DNA from: a virus
Taxonomy: Duplodnaviria > Heunggongvirae > Uroviricota > Caudoviricetes
Virus record (IMG/VR): IMGVR_UViG_2537562189_000008
Span: 1 to 42,791 of that record
Length of the DNA: 42,791 nt
Strand: one strand, 5' to 3'
Shown one piece after another: positions 1 through 42,791 of this stretch. The notes beneath the pieces are model-generated. The model saw only the letters and a list, made by a program, of their open reading frames with translations, did no database searches and was not told the DNA's origin. Position numbers and translations under genes: made by a program. How positions within the stretch are numbered: position 1 is the first letter of the stretch; every line of letters begins with the position of its first letter.

Positions 1-1158
1 ATGCTCACCGTTAAGCAGATTGAAGCAGCAAAGCCGAAAGAAAAACCATACCGCCTACTCGATGGTAATGGCCTGTACCTTTATGTCCCTGTATCAGGGA
101 AAAAGGTATGGCAGCTTCGCTACAAGATTGACGGTAAGGAGAAAATCCTGACTGTCGGAAAATATCCGCTTATGACTTTGCAGGAAGCAAGGGATAAGGC
201 ATGGACTGCGAGGAAAGACATCTCGGTTGGCATCGATCCGGTAAAGGCGAAAAAGGCTTCGTCTAACAACAATTCATTTAGTGCGATTTACAAGGAATGG
301 TACGAGCACAAGAAGCAAGTCTGGTCAGTAGGCTATGCAACTGAACTTGCCAAAATGTTTGATGACGACATTTTACCCATCATCGGCGGTCTTGAGATTC
401 AGGATATTGAGCCGATGCAACTGCTGGAAGTAATCCGCAGATTTGAAGATCGCGGTGCAATGGAGCGAGCCAACAAAGCCCGCAGAAGATGCGGCGAGGT
501 TTTTCGTTACGCTATTGTCACCGGAAGGGCTAAATATAACCCGGCACCTGACCTTGCAGACGCCATGAAAGGATACCGCAAGAAGAACTTCCCGTTCCTT
601 CCAGCAGACCAGATGCCTGCATTCAACAAAGCACTGGCAACATTTTCAGGAAGTATCGTATCGCTCATTGCGACAAAAGTTTTACGTTATACAGCCCTAA
701 GAACGAAAGAGCTTCGTTCCATGCTATGGAAGAACGTCGATTTTGAAAACAGGATTATCACCATCGACGCCAGTGTGATGAAGGGACGCAAAATTCATGT
801 GGTCCCGATGTCAGACCAGGTGGTTGAACTTCTCACTACGCTAAGCTCAATCACCAAACCAGTCTCAGAGTTTGTTTTTGCCGGGCGCAACGATAAGAAG
901 AAGCCAATCTGCGAGAACGCGGTATTGCTTGTGATCAAACAAATCGGCTATGAAGGTCTGGAAAGCGGTCACGGATTCAGGCATGAATTCAGCACGATTA
1001 TGAACGAGCACGAATGGCCTGCTGACGCTATTGAAGTGCAGCTGGCACATGCCAACGGTGGATCTGTGCGCGGTATTTACAACCATGCTCAGTATCTCGA
1101 TAAGCGCAGAGAAATGATGCAGTGGTGGGCGGATTGGCTTGATGAAAAGGAGGGGTAG
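1..1158 (+). CDS. int: Tyrosine integrase, P4/IntS-type with N-terminal arm-binding (DUF4102-like) region
   Basis: 385-aa ORF; N-terminus LTVKQIEAAKPKEKPYRLLDGNGLYL typical of P4-family integrases; C-terminal catalytic region with R..H..R..Y-type motifs (HGFRHEF, YNHAQY). Confidence 0.9.
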   Translation: MLTVKQIEAAKPKEKPYRLLDGNGLYLYVPVSGKKVWQLRYKIDGKEKILTVGKYPLMTLQEARDKAWTARKDISVGIDPVKAKKASSNNNSFSAIYKEWYEHKKQVWSVGYATELAKMFDDDILPIIGGLEIQDIEPMQLLEVIRRFEDRGAMERANKARRRCGEVFRYAIVTGRAKYNPAPDLADAMKGYRKKNFPFLPADQMPAFNKALATFSGSIVSLIATKVLRYTALRTKELRSMLWKNVDFENRIITIDASVMKGRKIHVVPMSDQVVELLTTLSSITKPVSEFVFAGRNDKKKPICENAVLLVIKQIGYEGLESGHGFRHEFSTIMNEHEWPADAIEVQLAHANGGSVRGIYNHAQYLDKRREMMQWWADWLDEKEG

Positions 1159-1248
1159 TGCCACCTACATCACTGCATGCATACACAGTAGTCTTAAGGC
1201 GCATTCAGATCAACTGTCATTTACTATGATTAACCTTAATCTTGCAAA

Positions 1249-8871: not shown

Positions 8872-10274
8872 TCCACCGTAAATTGAATGCCTGATTTTGA
8901 GGTATATGATCCAACCTGATTCCGTGGTTCTCCTGAAGGTGTCGAATCTTGCGCTGGTGCTGCGTCAGTATTCATTGACATATACCGCTTAACGGCACTC
9001 CCCAATGATTCACCTTTTTTAACATCCAACCCCAATATCTGACCGCCATTACGCGATTGTCCAGGGTTGCCATTCGCGCTCATCCACTCAGCTTTAAACT
9101 CATTAAACTGCGCGTTTCGTCGCTCAAGGTTTGCCATTGCATCAAGCCATCTTGCGACCGTCTCAGGGTTATCCATGTCAGTTGGCGCACCCTGTCGAAC
9201 GATCTCAACGTCTTTATCCGTTGCTGGGCCGGGAGGTAGGAATTTAAGAACCTGACTGTTAACAAGGGCATTTTGGCGAATGCGCAAATCACGCAATGTC
9301 GTATCGCTTCCGGTAAGTTTTGCGAACATGTTCTGTGCGTTACCGAACAAACCTGTCGTTGGTTTTTCTGCTCTGAACTGTTGAGCAAGCGCACTCATAG
9401 AATTGGCTGAGTTTGCTGATGCTGTAGCATTGTTTACAGCCGTCTCGATGCCTTTTTCCATGTTTACTGACAGCTTAGGTGCTTCGCTAATCAACTGCTG
9501 AGCCTTTTCCTGCGCTTGCTGCATTTTAAACCCGAACTCTTGCTGATCCAGAGCCAAGCGTTGTGCTGCGATATTGTGCCCAGTCATTGCTGACTGATAG
9601 GAAAGGTTTTGCCCTCTCGCCTGAAGTGCCTCGCCAGCCTGATTGCTGCGGATTGTCTCTGCAAGTTTTCCGCGATCAATCTCACGACCAGCCATCTTGT
9701 CCTGAACATTGAAGTAATCAATCGGACCAAGAGCAGCCATTCCAAGGTGATCAACAAACTCACCAAATCCTGAAGGATTCTGCTGATACATCTGAGCAAC
9801 GTTATTAGGGTCAACACCGACGCGCGCCAGCTCATTGGCGTTGTTTTGCAGCCATGATTGCATTGCTTCTGGAGACGATGACGCAAGGCGTGCGCCAGCC
9901 GCTAAGGTGCCGATAGAATTACGCTGATCTTCATCAATGAATCCCATGCCTTTACGAACGGATTCAATCTGTTCTGGATATTGAGTAGCCAACTGACGCA
10001 AAGCACCGCGATCACCAGACGCATAAGCATTAGCGTATGCCTGCTGAAATTCTTTCTGCCGCTGAGCCTGCTTTTCCTGCTGAAACACCCCCGCAATACC
10101 TGAAAGGCCTTGCAAAGCAGTCAGCCCAACATTGTTAGCGCCTGAACGCTCAATATCATTGTTCTGCCTGATAAACTGAAGCGTATTGCCGATGTCATTT
10201 ACGCTCGGAGCGTTTGAGTTGACGCCGCCGATACCAGCTAACAATCCGCCGTTTGTTCCTTGCCAAGTAGCCAT
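8868..10274 (-). CDS. Ejection protein, P22 gp20-like
   Basis: 468-aa ORF, size and synteny with P22 gene 20; overlapping stop/start with neighbours. Confidence 0.8.
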
Positions 10275-28631: not shown

Positions 28632-31112
28632 TCAGAATCCTCCTTTCTTCTTGGACTGCGGTTCCTCGCGTTCACGTCGGCGCATTTCAGCAGACTGTTG
28701 GTCTGTGTCATAAATAGCGCCATTTGCCTGAATGCAATACACCGTGCCGGTATTGCCATGACGATTGAGACGAAGGATTAGTTCGGTTTCACCAGGTGGA
28801 ACACTGTCATCAAAAGCGCCTTCACGATGGATCCCAACCCAATAATCGCAATCCTGTTCAATCTGCCCTGTATCTCGTGAGTCACTTGGTAATGGGCGTT
28901 TATTGGTTCGGCTTTCCAGTGCGCGGTTAAGCTGTGTCAGAAGCACAACAACGCAATCAAGCTCTTTGGCAAGGTTCTTCAGTCCTTTGGTGATCATGCC
29001 GTAAGCAAGGTCGTTGCGATCGGCCTTCTCAGCGGTCATTAGTGTCAGGTAATCGACCAGAATCATGCCAACACATCCTTTTTCTCGCTTGATTCGACGG
29101 CTTTCGCTGACGATTTGAGCCAGAGATAATCCCGGCGTGTCGTCGATGTAAAGCATGTCGATTTCACTCAAGCGATTAGCTGTTTCGATCGCCCTGTTGA
29201 AGTCACCATCGTAATCACCCTGATAGCCGTCATCAGCGTCATTTGTCGCCGGAAGGTAAAAAATATTCGGGTTAACACCAGACTTCTGCCCTACCAGTTT
29301 TTCCAGTATCTGGTCACCTGGCATTTCAAGGCTGAACATCAGAGCGGGCTTTTTCTCATGCACTGCGCAGTTGATTGCCATCTGGCTGTATAGCGTGGTG
29401 TTGTGGGTTAGAATGTATCCGTCAGTTGCATACAAATGTCTCTCGTGGGATACCATGATGCAAATGCACTCTTCACGTCCAATATACTCAACCGACGTGA
29501 TAACAGGCGCACTTGTTTTGATGCGTTTTGCAGTGAATTTTTGCTTCAGGCGTGGAGATTTTATGTGTGATAGAACCTCATCAGGCAACCTGATTGCGCA
29601 AATATGGGCATCCATACCTTTGCGCATTTCTCCCTTATAACTGAATTTCGGCTCCTGTTTGGTTGTCATACGACACACGCCACCAAGAGAATGCACCAGC
29701 CGCTTTACACCATCTGACAGGAACTTGCTTGCCGAGCTAAAGCGCAGGGCATTATTTCCTTCAACCCAACCATCGGTTTCAAGTAATCCGCATAGAACAT
29801 CAATACGAGTTTGCTTATCAGCAGAAAAAATAATATCCGGGATAATTTTAATCTCTGACATCCGGCCGTAGATACCAAGCCGTTGCATAACCCGCGTAAG
29901 AGATAATTTGCGGCTAAACTTGTGAGATAGGGAGTAATCGCAGCCAGAAACATGCCTGACTTCAATATCGTCACCCACTTCAGATCTTACTCGCTCAATG
30001 ATGTATGGTTCCGTCATGCTGATTCGTGGCGTACCTGCAAGATTTCCATCGCCAAGTAACGCACCTAACAGCCATGGGCTAATCCCTAAATCAACAGGCA
30101 ATCCGAAGTCACCGCTAATACCAGGAACATGAATGCGGCTTTGATAGCGAACGCATTCCATCATGTCCCGTAGGCGGCAGGTGTCTACAACATCAACGCC
30201 ACCGGTAATACGGTTACTATGAATTTCCCACAAATGATCATCCGCGCAATCAACGGTTCTTCCGTCAGAGAACGTAACTCGGTAAATATCTCGCTCCCCT
30301 TGAGGAAAAACTCCAGACACGAATGATGGTTGTCCATCCACTGATGCTAGGGAATCTCCAACACATACGTCACGAAATGTTGTCCATGAACCATCAGCAA
30401 GCAAAATGCGTGAATTAAGCGGTTGCGCTTTCCCCATCTTAGGGCGAGCGCCAATGACAAACAGAGAGCCTTTCACCAGACCTTTCGGTGACAGCATCCT
30501 GTCCAGCGATGGGATCCCTGTGCTCATTCCTCGTTGTTCGCCTGACGGGTCAAATCGCTTCTCAAGGTCGCTAACCCAGTCTTCCATGACCTCACCAAAT
30601 GAGCGAAGGCCGCGACGCGATCCGGTTTTTGCATGGTCTGTCAGTTGCGTGAAAATCGACTGAATAGCTTCGTACTTCTGCGTTGCAGTCATTCCGTTGC
30701 GGGAATAGAGCAATTCCGTCGCTTCAGTCATGCGGTTGATGGCGTAGCGTTCCATTGCGGTTTCGCGAACCTGCATTGCATAAGCAACGATGTTTGCTGC
30801 GCTTGGCGTGTTCTTTGCGATCTCAGCGATATAAGCAAAACCGCCAACAGACACCGTTAACGATTTGCGCTCCAGTTCATCGAAAAGCGTCAGGCCATCT
30901 ACTGGCTTTTGCTCCCGGTGCATTCTGGTTATTTCTTCGAAAAGGATTTTGTGTGGTCGGCTGTAAAATGAATCAGGCTTCAGCATCGCCAGAACTTTCT
31001 GGACGCGCTCACTGCTGTCATCATCCAGAAGCAATCCACCAATCACCGCCTGCTCTGCCTCGATGCTATGGGGCGGCGCATAAAAATTATCGGTCATCGT
31101 GTTCACCCTCAC
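28632..31112 (-). CDS. Replicative DNA helicase (DnaB family, P22 gene 12-like) interrupted by an intein
   Basis: 826-aa ORF; DnaB N-terminal domain (YAPPHSIEAEQAVIGGLLLDDD); Walker A GARPKMGK split from its Thr and the downstream DnaB motifs (TLYSQMAINCA...MFSLEM) by a 343-aa insertion bearing Hint and LAGLIDADG motifs. Confidence 0.88.
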   Translation of the reverse strand: MRVNTMTDNFYAPPHSIEAEQAVIGGLLLDDDSSERVQKVLAMLKPDSFYSRPHKILFEEITRMHREQKPVDGLTLFDELERKSLTVSVGGFAYIAEIAKNTPSAANIVAYAMQVRETAMERYAINRMTEATELLYSRNGMTATQKYEAIQSIFTQLTDHAKTGSRRGLRSFGEVMEDWVSDLEKRFDPSGEQRGMSTGIPSLDRMLSPKGLVKGSLFVIGARPKMGKAQPLNSRILLADGSWTTFRDVCVGDSLASVDGQPSFVSGVFPQGERDIYRVTFSDGRTVDCADDHLWEIHSNRITGGVDVVDTCRLRDMMECVRYQSRIHVPGISGDFGLPVDLGISPWLLGALLGDGNLAGTPRISMTEPYIIERVRSEVGDDIEVRHVSGCDYSLSHKFSRKLSLTRVMQRLGIYGRMSEIKIIPDIIFSADKQTRIDVLCGLLETDGWVEGNNALRFSSASKFLSDGVKRLVHSLGGVCRMTTKQEPKFSYKGEMRKGMDAHICAIRLPDEVLSHIKSPRLKQKFTAKRIKTSAPVITSVEYIGREECICIMVSHERHLYATDGYILTHNTTLYSQMAINCAVHEKKPALMFSLEMPGDQILEKLVGQKSGVNPNIFYLPATNDADDGYQGDYDGDFNRAIETANRLSEIDMLYIDDTPGLSLAQIVSESRRIKREKGCVGMILVDYLTLMTAEKADRNDLAYGMITKGLKNLAKELDCVVVLLTQLNRALESRTNKRPLPSDSRDTGQIEQDCDYWVGIHREGAFDDSVPPGETELILRLNRHGNTGTVYCIQANGAIYDTDQQSAEMRRREREEPQSKKKGGF
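29400..30428 (-). other. Intein (Hint splicing domain plus LAGLIDADG homing endonuclease) inserted in the helicase P-loop; Ala at position 1 with Trp, Cys and Thr at the positions expected for a class-3-type intein
   Basis: Residues A229..N571 of the helicase ORF: block A-like ILLADGSW...CVGDSLASVDG, block B-like GRTVDCADDHLW, LAGLIDADG motifs LLGALLGDGNL and LCGLLETDGWVEG, C-terminal ...CICIMV...YILTHN followed by Thr as +1 extein residue restoring GK-T. Confidence 0.75.
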
Positions 31113-40189: not shown

Positions 40190-40488
40190 ATCTATATCGC
40201 TGCCCATTCTGTGGTTCCACTGTGCTTAACATCGGATACTCATTCAGTATCAGAGGGAAAATGCGCTATGTGTCATGCAAATGTGGTGCCCAAGGACCAG
40301 AAAAACGAACTAAATCTGAAGCGATTTCTTCATGGAATAGTCGAATGAAAGTATGGGTTTATGATCCAGAAACCATATTAAACGCTGAAGAGCGCAGGAG
40401 AACGGAAGTCTATATTCATAACCTTAATGAAGATGGATTTACACCAGTGCTTGTAAAGGCTACTCCGCAGGAGGTTAACCATGGCTAA
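40186..40488 (+). CDS. Lar-family restriction-alleviation-like protein with C-terminal extension
   Basis: N-terminus MNLYRCPFCGS...C.CGAQGP......AISSWNSR fits Lar zinc-binding pattern. Confidence 0.6.
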   Translation: MNLYRCPFCGSTVLNIGYSFSIRGKMRYVSCKCGAQGPEKRTKSEAISSWNSRMKVWVYDPETILNAEERRRTEVYIHNLNEDGFTPVLVKATPQEVNHG

Positions 40489-40551
40489 CCTGCAACTTGC
40501 CGTCAAAGGTGAATAACAATCCTCGCACTCGCGGGGATTTCTTTTATCTGA

Positions 40552-40576
40552 ACTCGCTACGGCGAGTTTTGTTTTA
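40552..40576 (+). terminator. Rho-independent terminator
   Basis: AACTCGC-TACG-GCGAGTT hairpin followed by TTGTTTT. Confidence 0.6.
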
Positions 40577-40588
40577 TGGAGATGATAA

Positions 40589-40756
40589 ATGCACTTCCGA
40601 GTCACAGGCGAATGGAATGGAGAACCATTCAACAGAGTTATCGAAGCAGAGAACATCAACGACTGCTATGACCACTGGATGATATGGGCGCAGATAGCAC
40701 ATGCAGACGTAACCAATATTCGAATTGAAGAACTGAAAGAACACCAAGCCGCCTGA
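40589..40756 (+). CDS. Small hypothetical protein (55 aa)
   Basis: Own translation MHFRVTGEWNGEPFNRVIEAENINDCYDHWMIWAQIAHADVTNIRIEELKEHQAA; GGAG 7 nt upstream. Confidence 0.45.
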   Translation: MHFRVTGEWNGEPFNRVIEAENINDCYDHWMIWAQIAHADVTNIRIEELKEHQAA

Positions 40757-40770
40757 TGGCGGTTTTTTAT
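40746..40770 (+). terminator. Rho-independent terminator overlapping the stop of the small ORF
   Basis: GCCGCC-TGAT-GGCGG hairpin followed by TTTTTTAT. Confidence 0.7.
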
Positions 40771-40813
40771 TGCCTGATTTGCAGGTTCGATTCCCTATTC
40801 GGAGATAGCACTC

Positions 40814-41014
40814 ATGCAACACGAACTACAGCCTGATTCCCTGGTTGATTTGAAATTCATCATGGTCGATACTGGCTTCGGTAAAACCTTCATCTATGAC
40901 CGGATTAAGTCCGGAGACCTGCCTAAAGCCAAAGTTATCCACGGGCGAGCAAGATGGTTATATCGTGACCATTGTGAATTCAAAAATAAGCTCTTAAGCC
41001 GCGCCAATGGGTAA
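40814..41014 (+). CDS. torI: AlpA/TorI-family excisionase (recombination directionality factor)
   Basis: 66-aa product MQHELQPDSLVDLKFIMVDTGFGKTFIYDRIKSGDLPKAKVIHGRARWLYRDHCEFKNKLLSRANG; winged-helix AlpA pattern; matches recalled TorI of KplE1. Confidence 0.75.
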   Translation: MQHELQPDSLVDLKFIMVDTGFGKTFIYDRIKSGDLPKAKVIHGRARWLYRDHCEFKNKLLSRANG

Positions 41015-41087
41015 AATAGCGGGTAAAATATTTTTCACATCTAAAAAACACCATTCCAATCAATCCCCTGCCGCCTCAAGTAGATGT

Positions 41088-41102
41088 CTGCAGGGGACAC
41101 CA
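41088..41102. other. Putative attR core: 15-bp identity to the 3' end of tRNA-Arg (argW), CTGCAGGGGACACCA
   Basis: Sequence equals acceptor-stem 3' strand plus discriminator plus CCA of recalled argW; upstream flank is not tRNA-like, as expected for the displaced core copy. Confidence 0.6.
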
Positions 41103-41543
41103 GATACCCTTCAAACGAAATCTACCTTCACCCCGTAAAAGATGGGTTTGGCAGCACACTTGCCTTATATCTACTCATTTTTACTGCAACAGGTTGAAAT
41201 CTCAGCACTGTCAGAAAGCGCTGATGACTAAACAGCCCTGGGCCGGGCGATGTAACCATCACACAGAATCCTGATAGCGAAATATGGCGTGACTCGATAC
41301 TTCACTCCGCAATGCATTCCTTGATGAATTCGCAGGACCGTGATACACGGGACAGGTCACTGAATGACGACAATGTCCTGGAAATCAGCGAACCGCGCAT
41401 CTGAAGTACATTTGAGCGACTGTACCAGAACATGAATGAGGCGTTTGGATTAGGCGATTATTAGCAGGGCTAAGCATTTTACTATTATTATTTTCCGGTT
41501 GAGGGATATAGAGCTATCGACAACAACCGGAAAAAGTTTACGT

Positions 41544-42791
41544 CTATATTGCTGAAGGTACAGGCGTTTCCATAACTATTTGCTCGCGTTTTTTACTCAA
41601 GAAGAAAATGCCAAATAGCAACATCAGGCAGACAATACCCGAAATTGCGAAGAAAACTGTCTGGTAGCCTGCGTGGTCAAAGAGTATCCCAGTCGGCGTT
41701 GAAAGCAGCACAATCCCAAGCGAACTGGCAATTTGAAAACCAATCAGAAAGATCGTCGACGACAGGCGCTTATCAAAGTTTGCCACGCTGTATTTGAAGA
41801 CGGATATGACACAAAGTGGAACCTCAATGGCATGTAACAACTTCACTAATGAAATAATCCAGGGGTTAACGAACAGCGCGCAGGAAAGGATACGCAACGC
41901 CATAATCACAACTCCGATAAGTAATGCATTTTTTGGCCCTACCCGATTCACAAAGAAAGGAATAATCGCCATGCACAGCGCTTCGAGTACCACCTGGAAT
42001 GAGTTGAGATAACCATACAGGCGCGTTCCTACATCGTGTGATTCGAATAAACCTGCATAAAAGACAGGAAAAAGTTGTTGATCAAAAATGTTATAGAAAG
42101 ACCACGTCCCCACAATAAATATGACGAAAACCCAGAAGTTTCGATCCTTGAAAACTGCGATAAAATCCTCTTTTTTTACCCCTCCCGCATCTGCCGCTAC
42201 GCACTGGTGATCCTTATCTTTAAAACGCATGTTGATCATCATAAATACAGCGCCAAATAGCGAGACCAACCAGAAGTTGATATGGGGACTGATACTAAAA
42301 AATATGCCGGCAAAGAACGCGCCAATAGCATAGCCAAAAGATCCCCAGGCGCGCGCTGTTCCATATTCGAAATGAAAATTTCGCGCCATTTTTTCGGTGA
42401 AGCTATCAAGCAAACCGCATCCCGCCAGATACCCCAAGCCAAAAAATAGCGCCCCCAGAATTAGACCTACAGAAAAATTGCTTTGCAGTAACGGTTCATA
42501 AACGTAAATCATAAACGGTCCGGTCAAGACCAGGATGAAACTCATACACCAGATGAGCGGTTTCTTCAGACCGAGTTTATCCTGAACGATGCCGTAGAAC
42601 ATCATAAATAGAATGCTGGTAAACTGGTTGACCGAATAAAGTGTACCTAATTCCGTCCCTGTCAACCCTAGATGTCCTTTCAGCCAAATAGCGTATAACG
42701 ACCACCACAGCGACCAGGAAATAAAAAAGAGAAATGAGTAACTGGATGCAAAACGATAGTACGCATTTCTGAATGGAATATTCAGTGCCAT
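41544..42791 (-). CDS. cscB: Sucrose permease CscB-like MFS (LacY family) transporter; host flank
   Basis: 415-aa 12-TM ORF starting MALNIPFRNAYYRFASSYSFLFFISWSLWW...; matches recalled CscB; GC and codon usage differ from adjacent phage DNA. Confidence 0.75.
   Translation of the reverse strand: MALNIPFRNAYYRFASSYSFLFFISWSLWWSLYAIWLKGHLGLTGTELGTLYSVNQFTSILFMMFYGIVQDKLGLKKPLIWCMSFILVLTGPFMIYVYEPLLQSNFSVGLILGALFFGLGYLAGCGLLDSFTEKMARNFHFEYGTARAWGSFGYAIGAFFAGIFFSISPHINFWLVSLFGAVFMMINMRFKDKDHQCVAADAGGVKKEDFIAVFKDRNFWVFVIFIVGTWSFYNIFDQQLFPVFYAGLFESHDVGTRLYGYLNSFQVVLEALCMAIIPFFVNRVGPKNALLIGVVIMALRILSCALFVNPWIISLVKLLHAIEVPLCVISVFKYSVANFDKRLSSTIFLIGFQIASSLGIVLLSTPTGILFDHAGYQTVFFAISGIVCLMLLFGIFFLSKKREQIVMETPVPSAI

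Follow-up and report, generated by a model that had tools for sequence, protein, structure and literature searches.

A conserved tRNA-like box before the torI excisionase gene at the right end of an argW-integrated P22-like prophage

The torI locus and its two argW matches

The stretch of DNA analyzed here, called the window throughout, comprises positions 1 to 42,791 of IMG/VR virus record IMGVR_UViG_2537562189_000008. It is a P22-like (HK620/Sf6/CUS-3-like) E. coli prophage that runs from the ATG of the integrase gene intS into the chromosomal gene cscB. Near its right end lies torI, the gene of the excisionase or recombination directionality factor (RDF), with one exact match to the host tRNA gene argW before it, a 16-mer, and another after it, a 15-mer. 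This region is the right half of a site-specific recombination module of the KplE1/HK620/Sf6 type, in a P22-like prophage inserted in argW. A first reading made from the sequence alone had noticed both matches and suggested that they were a single 3' segment of a tRNA, interrupted by about 295 bp with the excisionase gene. We are mainly concerned with the upstream match, which comparison with relatives indicates to be a conserved element in its own right, and with the role that it may have. The features between the upstream terminator and the chromosomal junction are the following.

40746..40769, + strand: intrinsic-terminator-like hairpin, AAGCCGCC TGAT GGCGGTTT plus a T run, found by terminator scan; it abuts the box on the upstream side
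40770..40782, + strand: TTGC-N5-TTGC, annotated in HK620 as cII site of a putative integration promoter; the 16-mer begins with the second TTGC
40779..40794, + strand: 16-mer TTGCAGGTTCGATTCC, nt 46-61 of argW; exact match, single occurrence in the window
40782..40795, + strand: conserved 'T-loop box' CAGGTTCGATTCCC, with the family-wide core GTTCGATT(C/T)CC at 40785-40794 and GTTCG at 40785-40789
40801..40805, + strand: torI ribosome-binding site GGAGA, from reading of the sequence; GGAGAT is kept in relatives
40814..41014, + strand: torI, recombination directionality factor (excisionase) of 66 amino acids; full-length match to PDB 1Z4H
41009-41017 and 41021-41029, + strand: two direct GGGTAAAAT repeats, overlapping the torI stop codon; HK620 annotates an attP repeat here
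41080..41088, + strand: phage-side half-site GTAGATGTC, to the left of the crossover region; remnant of a T-loop, now decayed, and inverted repeat of GACACC
41088..41102, + strand: attR core CTGCAGGGGACACCA, nt 61-75 of argW and identical to K-12 pawZ; exact match

Both matches are found where the sequence-only reading had placed them, each once and on the + strand. The argW gene of K-12 (NC_000913) reads ...GGGCTAATTGCAGGTTCGATTCCTGCAGGGGACACCA, and within it the 16-mer and the 15-mer abut, sharing one base. The 16-mer is made of two variable-loop bases, the 5' strand of the T-stem, the T-loop and the two bases that open the 3' strand; it is followed by CTATT where argW has TGCAG, so that the 3' T-stem strand is absent, as had been described. 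GTTCG, which the 16-mer contains, is the universal core of tRNA T-loops. The chance expectation, calculated for the whole window on both strands and taking composition into account, is 1.9e-5 for the 16-mer and 5.6e-5 for the 15-mer, and no further argW stretch of at least 12 nt is present elsewhere in the window. The suspicion that the T-arm-like 16-mer might be foreign to argW or due to chance can therefore be put aside. Both matches are exact, and the 16-mer clearly appears to be of tRNA (argW-like) origin. ARAGORN calls no tRNA gene in the window, Rfam gives no tRNA match up to an E value of 10 and the T-arm is not complete, so that a tRNA or tRNA-like RNA was rejected as an explanation. 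The two fragments are 293 bp apart, and the torI stop codon is followed by the 15-mer after 73 nt. The TorI-like identity proposed for the gene between them was confirmed by the full-length match to 'Tor inhibition protein' (PDB 1Z4H, E = 2.5e-42), and near-identical genomes annotate it as torI. Searches of TorI and of the orf55-like protein described below against NCBIfam and Pfam matched no NCBIfam model and gave a weak, sub-threshold HTH_17 match that was uninformative.

The proposal that the 15-mer is the attR core was borne out. In K-12 the identical 15 bp, which close CPS-53/KplE1 and have the same position relative to torI as in the window, are annotated as a pseudogene, pawZ; the chromosomal flank is dsdC in K-12 and the csc sucrose-utilisation cluster here, and the identity thus ends one base earlier (CACCAg versus CACCAt). 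The published KplE1 core, CTGCAGGGGACACCAT, is duplicated and 16 nt long (PMC2951348), and in vitro excision of KplE1 and HK620 has been obtained on attL and attR substrates with this 16-nt core (PMC2951348, PMC3509656). The left junction, for which the same core had been demanded, lies just beyond the window and was judged in strain KD602, whose intS region is 100% identical to window positions 1-1200: an intact argW with the core, followed by the P' arm, is found there, and the end of argW lies 161 bp 5' of the intS ATG. The closest match to the right end of the window in the genome collection is 99.2% identical. An empty site was reconstructed from the argW 3' part and the window from 41103 onward. 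It is found with 100% identity, and a site covering at least 80% of it occurs in 1,471 E. coli genomes, out of 5,426 complete genomes, with argW joined to the csc flank and no prophage between them. Because these empty-site genomes join argW to the sequence from 41103 onward, the prophage boundary lies inside the 15-mer. The attR assignment is correct and was already known for this phage group: the core stands at the junction of prophage and chromosome, and a TorI-type gene lies inside attR and reads toward the core.

In its structure the window does not differ from the IntS-TorI argW module of KplE1 (CPS-53), HK620 and Sf6, and is a member of that group. It has the same core and TorI protein, intS and torI at opposite prophage ends, GGGTAAAAT repeats at the torI stop codon and the 16-mer before torI. 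These repeats look like P-arm IntS arm-type sites by their TAAA motif, and we infer their place on the attR side; the P' arm sites also share a conserved TAAA motif (PMC2951348). At 41080-41102, GATGTC-TGCAGGG-GACACC forms an inverted repeat about a 7-bp centre, of which relatives keep the left GATGT(A/C), and this symmetry points to probable IntS core-type half-sites flanking an overlap region TGCAGGG at 41089-41095.

The upstream match in relatives

A tRNA segment split by torI should leave its T-loop on one side of the gene only, and this is not what the relatives show. Their attP sites, in other genera, keep a T-loop remnant of their own beside the core: left of the crossover region (its edge marked here by a stroke) they read (T)TCGATGT(A/C)/TGCAGGGGAC, in the same register as TTCGATTCC/TGCAGGG in argW, the remnant next to the core being TTCGATGTA/TGCAGGG. 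Examples are CAGGTTAGATGTA/TGCAGGGGACAC in Klebsiella, GAGTTCGATGTA/TGCAGG in Serratia and TGATTCGATGTA/TGCAGG in Erwinia, and in the window the counterpart of this remnant has drifted to GTAGATGTC. With one T-loop remnant already in attP, the upstream 16-mer counts as a second copy, overlapping the first over about nt 54-62 of the tRNA, and insertion of torI into a single tRNA segment is rejected because T-loop sequence would not remain on both sides. Evidently the 16-mer and the 15-mer are not two halves of a split tRNA, and the 16-mer represents instead a separately conserved T-loop-like box.

Among close relatives the 16-mer is nearly invariant. It is found identical, 35 nt before the torI ATG, in K-12 KplE1, in the free phages HK620 and Sf6 and in about 20 more phage records; 81 of 86 E. 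coli-type loci have it intact at this distance, and the remaining five differ at one base. To its left, three types of flank (the lambda orf55-like gene and its hairpin, the K-12 type, and a third hairpin) meet at the T run that precedes it. This convergence indicates that the 16-mer travels with torI; it is an element of the phage module, of which it is the leftmost part, and is not specific to this lysogen.

One published annotation gives the same 16-mer a different role. The GenBank record of CUS-3 (CP000711) labels it 'attL core' and 'attR core' (L004 1540-1555; L005 1-16), and the argW T-arm present at attL makes a 16-bp direct repeat with it, so that recombination at the T-arm repeat could be imagined and the 16-mer would be an alternative attachment core. 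We find this hardly credible. In the CUS-3 lysogen E. coli S88 (L119 870-1200), the 16-mer is followed by torI and CTGCAGGGGACACCAT directly past the end of the CP000711 record. Since the true core and torI follow in S88, the CUS-3 record is 293 bp too short to reach the real attR and lacks torI. The virion-derived genomes in the alignment (HK620, Sf6, Kapi1, N7, HF4s and others) match the window through torI up to the core, and the excision substrates used in vitro have the 16-nt core. Furthermore, a chimeric query joining argW, the 16-mer and torI, the junction that such recombination would leave, found none in 5,426 genomes. With this result and the layout of S88, use of the 16-mer as crossover site is effectively refuted, and the sequence labelled as att core in CUS-3 is the same as that of the window and yet is not the crossover site. 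The mistake has a practical consequence, as taking the 16-mer for the att core cuts the excisionase gene off the annotated prophage, which is what happened in the CUS-3 record.

Conservation was then followed through the torI family, with one genome per species plus viral contigs grouped into 55 non-redundant clusters (protein identity at least 90%, upstream identity at least 85%). The sequence GTTCGATTCC, with at most one mismatch, is present in 36 of the 55 and in nearly all of them begins 29 nt ahead of the start codon; about 5 clusters have it with 2-3 mismatches, and 14 are without it. Conserved lineages were recognised by presence of the motif, and the mismatch distribution is not graded but bimodal (0-1 or absent). 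The box occurs in prophages of Escherichia, Salmonella, Citrobacter, Serratia, Pantoea, Erwinia and Edwardsiella, and is common to the TorI clade and to a clade with about 50% protein identity to it (Salmonella phage Emek type). The invariant part of the motif alignment is C-(A/T)-G-GTTCGATT(C/T)CC-C. Family-wide only this 13-nt core is kept; the TTG that completes the 16/16 match in E. coli is lineage-specific, and sister lineages have TTC, GA, CCT or others in its place.

The surroundings of the box are far less constant. Only a few bases from the box, to the left and to the right, information content is down to 0.2-0.9 bit, and it rises again at GGAGAT; the box is intact in at least 12 differing flank contexts, and between box-bearing lineages the identity of torI at four-fold degenerate sites is only 29-61%. 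Furthermore, tandem duplication of the box has occurred on at least two independent occasions: Erwinia-type phages show a period of 16 bp (CAGGTTCGATTCCCGT-CAGGTTCGATTCCC), and L215 shows one of 13 bp; tandem boxes are seen at L008 2484-2515 (Erwinia phage Midgardsormr38), L215, L218, L219 and L222. An intact box amid diverged flanks and synonymous sites, together with these duplications, indicates that the box has been selected and is not a neutral fossil; as far as sequence comparison can tell, it is maintained by selection. This is the new element of the locus, a T-arm look-alike before torI that is conserved and apparently selected, the attR core itself being textbook knowledge.

The box-less clusters are of two kinds: in some the upstream gene extends over the start codon, and in others there is a clean gap of about 27 bp. 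In Dryocola (L018) the sequence is ...ATTGCCTGG joined to AGGAAAGC-ATG; there and in L189-L199, the DNA before the xis-like gene has the terminator and ATTGCCTGG context of box-bearing loci, with the gap of about 27 bp at the place of the box. In these loci the box behaves like a discrete unit of insertion or deletion.

A neutral origin still has to be weighed against this. The argW segment of an ancestral attP may have been split by the torI cassette, its upstream half surviving by chance or through recent ancestry. In its favour, the two pieces are neighbours in argW and share 1 nt there, the position of the box is that of a mosaic boundary, next to a truncated P22-type xis in Emek and K-12, and in some lineages the box has decayed or is gone. 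The TTCGAT kept in register by the core in the attP of relatives speaks against such a history, as it makes the two pieces overlap in tRNA coordinates, and so do the integrity of the box beside diverged neighbouring bases and synonymous sites and its two independent duplications. We regard a neutral fossil as improbable.

Possible roles of the box

We favour, at about even confidence, the reading that the box is a second-copy, tRNA-derived sequence kept by selection that would act as a cis-regulatory site for torI. A strong terminator (40746-40769) precedes it and the ribosome-binding site of torI follows; prediction of sigma-70 promoters in 40400-41300 gave none. With a strong terminator and no sigma-70 promoter, torI probably relies on read-through transcription, which a protein bound at the box could gate. 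The most likely binder would be TorI itself, through GTTCG, leading to negative autoregulation or to a roadblock against read-through; IntS would be a less likely one, through TCGATTCC, which is the exact left half-site of attB. In the 250 bp 5' of torI there are three terminator-like hairpins against 0.9 expected (40518-40569, 40746-40769), which suggests that hairpins shield torI from read-through unless antitermination acts. A 2013 PNAS paper reportedly found that Rho-dependent termination silences torI.

Published data on TorI binding provide some support for this regulatory role. TorI is known to repress intS through its attL sites, which are 8-bp units with GTTCG, GATCG or GTCCG cores, arranged in arrays where functional, and mutation of the core abolishes TorI action (PMC2951348). 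The GTTCG of the box (40785-40789) is a perfect TorI pentamer, shared with the mapped attL sites I1-I5, some lineages read CAGTTCGA, which has 7/8 positions of the mapped site form, and we counted the tandem duplications for a regulatory role because they are typical of RDF sites. The published att-site maps covered here place TorI sites on attL only and do not mention the upstream box (PMC2951348, PMC3509656), the torI promoter is described as uncharacterised (PMC2951348), and no description of the torI 5' region was found in the literature searched. A CGAAC, the reverse complement of the TorI pentamer, is present at 40822-40826 in torI codons 3-5, 37 bp from the GTTCG of the box, and is unconserved in other genera.

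Several observations weigh against this role, and some of them against TorI as the binder in particular. The AGGTTCGA of the window agrees with Y-R-G-W-Y-C-G-Y at only 6/8 positions and is present once, and the box is single in most lineages, whereas TorI sites form arrays. Matrices built from 5 or 15 attL sites give the box 3.1 or -0.9 bits, compared with 9-15 bits for true sites, and it ranks no higher than the top 1-3% of the positions in the window. In the box GTTCG is always followed by A, whereas all 15 sites have C or T there, and the invariant ATT(C/T)CC, an extra part of the box with respect to I1-I5, is not accounted for by TorI sites. As an IntS site, the box has the weak attB half-site form and not the GATGTC/GGTGTC of attP. 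Conserved lineages were, moreover, chosen by the presence of the motif, though the mismatch distribution is strongly bimodal, and the box is missing from 14 clusters and decayed in about 5. Finally, a 135-bp attR that starts at the torI 3' end, and consequently lacks the box, excises in vitro (PMC3509656). This excision, together with the lineages that lack the box, points to an accessory element, dispensable for excision in vitro and in those lineages.

A more specific form of the regulatory reading, that the T-loop of host argW has been co-opted as an operator before the excisionase gene, with TorI or IntS bound there to hold the RDF down in lysogens, is to our mind doubtful. If it were true, excision would be decided by way of a tRNA-derived site, and at its strongest this reading has the GTTCG repeats of the P' arm themselves descend from T-loop copies. 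The question has some importance, since expression of the RDF decides between loss and maintenance of the prophage and its control is described as uncharacterised in the literature covered; a defined box of 11-13 nt, 29 nt before the start codon, is a direct target for mutagenesis.

The box might also be part of a promoter. HK620 and Sf6 annotate a putative integration promoter here; its cII site, TTGCCTGATTTGC, ends with the four bases that begin the 16-mer, and the position is homologous to that of the CII site of lambda pI, after the same orf55 hairpin and just before the xis ribosome-binding site. A CII-activated, pI-like promoter, with TTGC-N5-TTGC on either side of its -35 element and its start near or inside torI, would give integrase without excisionase. 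The lambda pI region aligned by position with 40770..40782 is TTGCGTGTAATTGC, and lambda ...GGCGGTTTTTTCTTGCGTGTAATTGCGGAGAC...ATG stands against ...GGCGGTTTTTTATTGCCTGATTTGC(AGGTTCGATTCCCTATTC)GGAGAT...ATG in the window, with the TTG of the E. coli form aligned to the second TTGC of pI. The E. coli form thus shares its place and its TTGC repeats with the lambda site. It differs by an 18-bp T-loop-like segment between these repeats and the ribosome-binding site and by a spacing of N5 instead of N6, and the second TTGC is missing in most other box-bearing lineages (TTCC, GACA, CCCT and others). The conserved GTTCGATTYCC would fall in the promoter spacer and no sigma-70-like promoter was detected, so that the conserved TTGC-N6-TTGC around a -35 element that marks a CII-dependent pI-type promoter is not what the family has. 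We consider this explanation rather unlikely.

An RNA element in the torI leader is another candidate. The box could mimic a T-loop for T-loop-binding factors, or its UUCC could pair with GGAG and damp translation. The spacing between box and GGAG is nearly fixed at 6 nt despite a variable linker, UUCC:GGAG pairing is found in 9/9 sequences by RNAalifold, and Edwardsiella-type loci can form a 6-bp hairpin about the loop. Against these stand a consensus helix of only 4 pairs (-1.0 kcal/mol) with no compensatory change, single-sequence folds no better than those of shuffled sequences (z from -1.4 to +1.0), the absence of the 3' T-stem strand in most lineages, and the lack of an Rfam family (E up to 10) or a tRNA call. 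With an invariant 4-bp helix and no covariation, RNA structure was rejected as the main explanation, and some part for an RNA element has, in our estimate, a slight probability. Sigma-54, LexA, IHF and GANTC-methylation readings of the box do not fit across lineages, as judged by eye with no tool applied.

Ends of the prophage and origin of the module

Four further features complete the layout of the window.

1..1158, + strand: intS integrase gene, an open reading frame (ORF) of 385 amino acids at the left prophage end; attL and argW lie just beyond the window
40589..40756, + strand: lambda orf55-like gene of 55 amino acids, from the ORF list; final early-left gene before the recombination module
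41103..42791, no strand: bacterial DNA right of the prophage, continuous with argW in empty-site genomes
41544-42791, - strand: sucrose permease gene cscB, annotated as oligosaccharide major facilitator superfamily (MFS) transporter, followed by csc genes

The intS product matches the NCBIfam integrase domain, and the gene is 96-100% identical to annotated 'prophage integrase IntS' genes. An ORF of 43 amino acids (41007-41138, + strand) overlaps the torI stop codon and crosses attR into bacterial DNA, in a position homologous to HK620 hkaB and Sf6 gene 17; it is probably not a real gene, its 3' end being chromosomal in the lysogen.

The torI-attP-intS module has its left mosaic boundary at the box. 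In Emek (L010 2473-2532) and in K-12 KplE1, where it is ypdJ (L002 ~10185-10235), a truncated P22-type xis lies directly left of the box, and its first 18-21 residues, which are all that is left, are 90% identical to P22 Xis; the Emek annotation fuses it in frame with the torI-like ORF. In the window and HK620, what lies left of the box is the lambda orf55 gene and its hairpin, which in lambda stand directly before xis; the 3' end of the orf55-like gene and the next hairpin match lambda 29098-29134, just 5' of lambda xis. These arrangements fit the replacement of an older xis-int module, with the joint at or within about 25 nt of the box, in agreement with the module exchange that the sequence-only reading had offered beside a fossil attachment site. 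Of that suggestion, the part on exchange stands with the position of the box at the mosaic boundary, and the part on a fossil is contradicted by its conservation, not decay, in deeply diverged relatives.

In Serratia and Pantoea the tRNA similarity extends to ...GATTCCTG, and this longer similarity indicates that the T-arm as far as tRNA nt 64 was probably part of the ancestral element. Simple site-specific events put a T-arm beside intS, not torI. Another joint is suggested elsewhere in the family: two xis clades (L167, L171 and L173 versus L274 and L297), with about 50-60% protein identity, have a nearly identical upstream region from terminator to ribosome-binding site, which implies a recombination joint near the start codon between the two.

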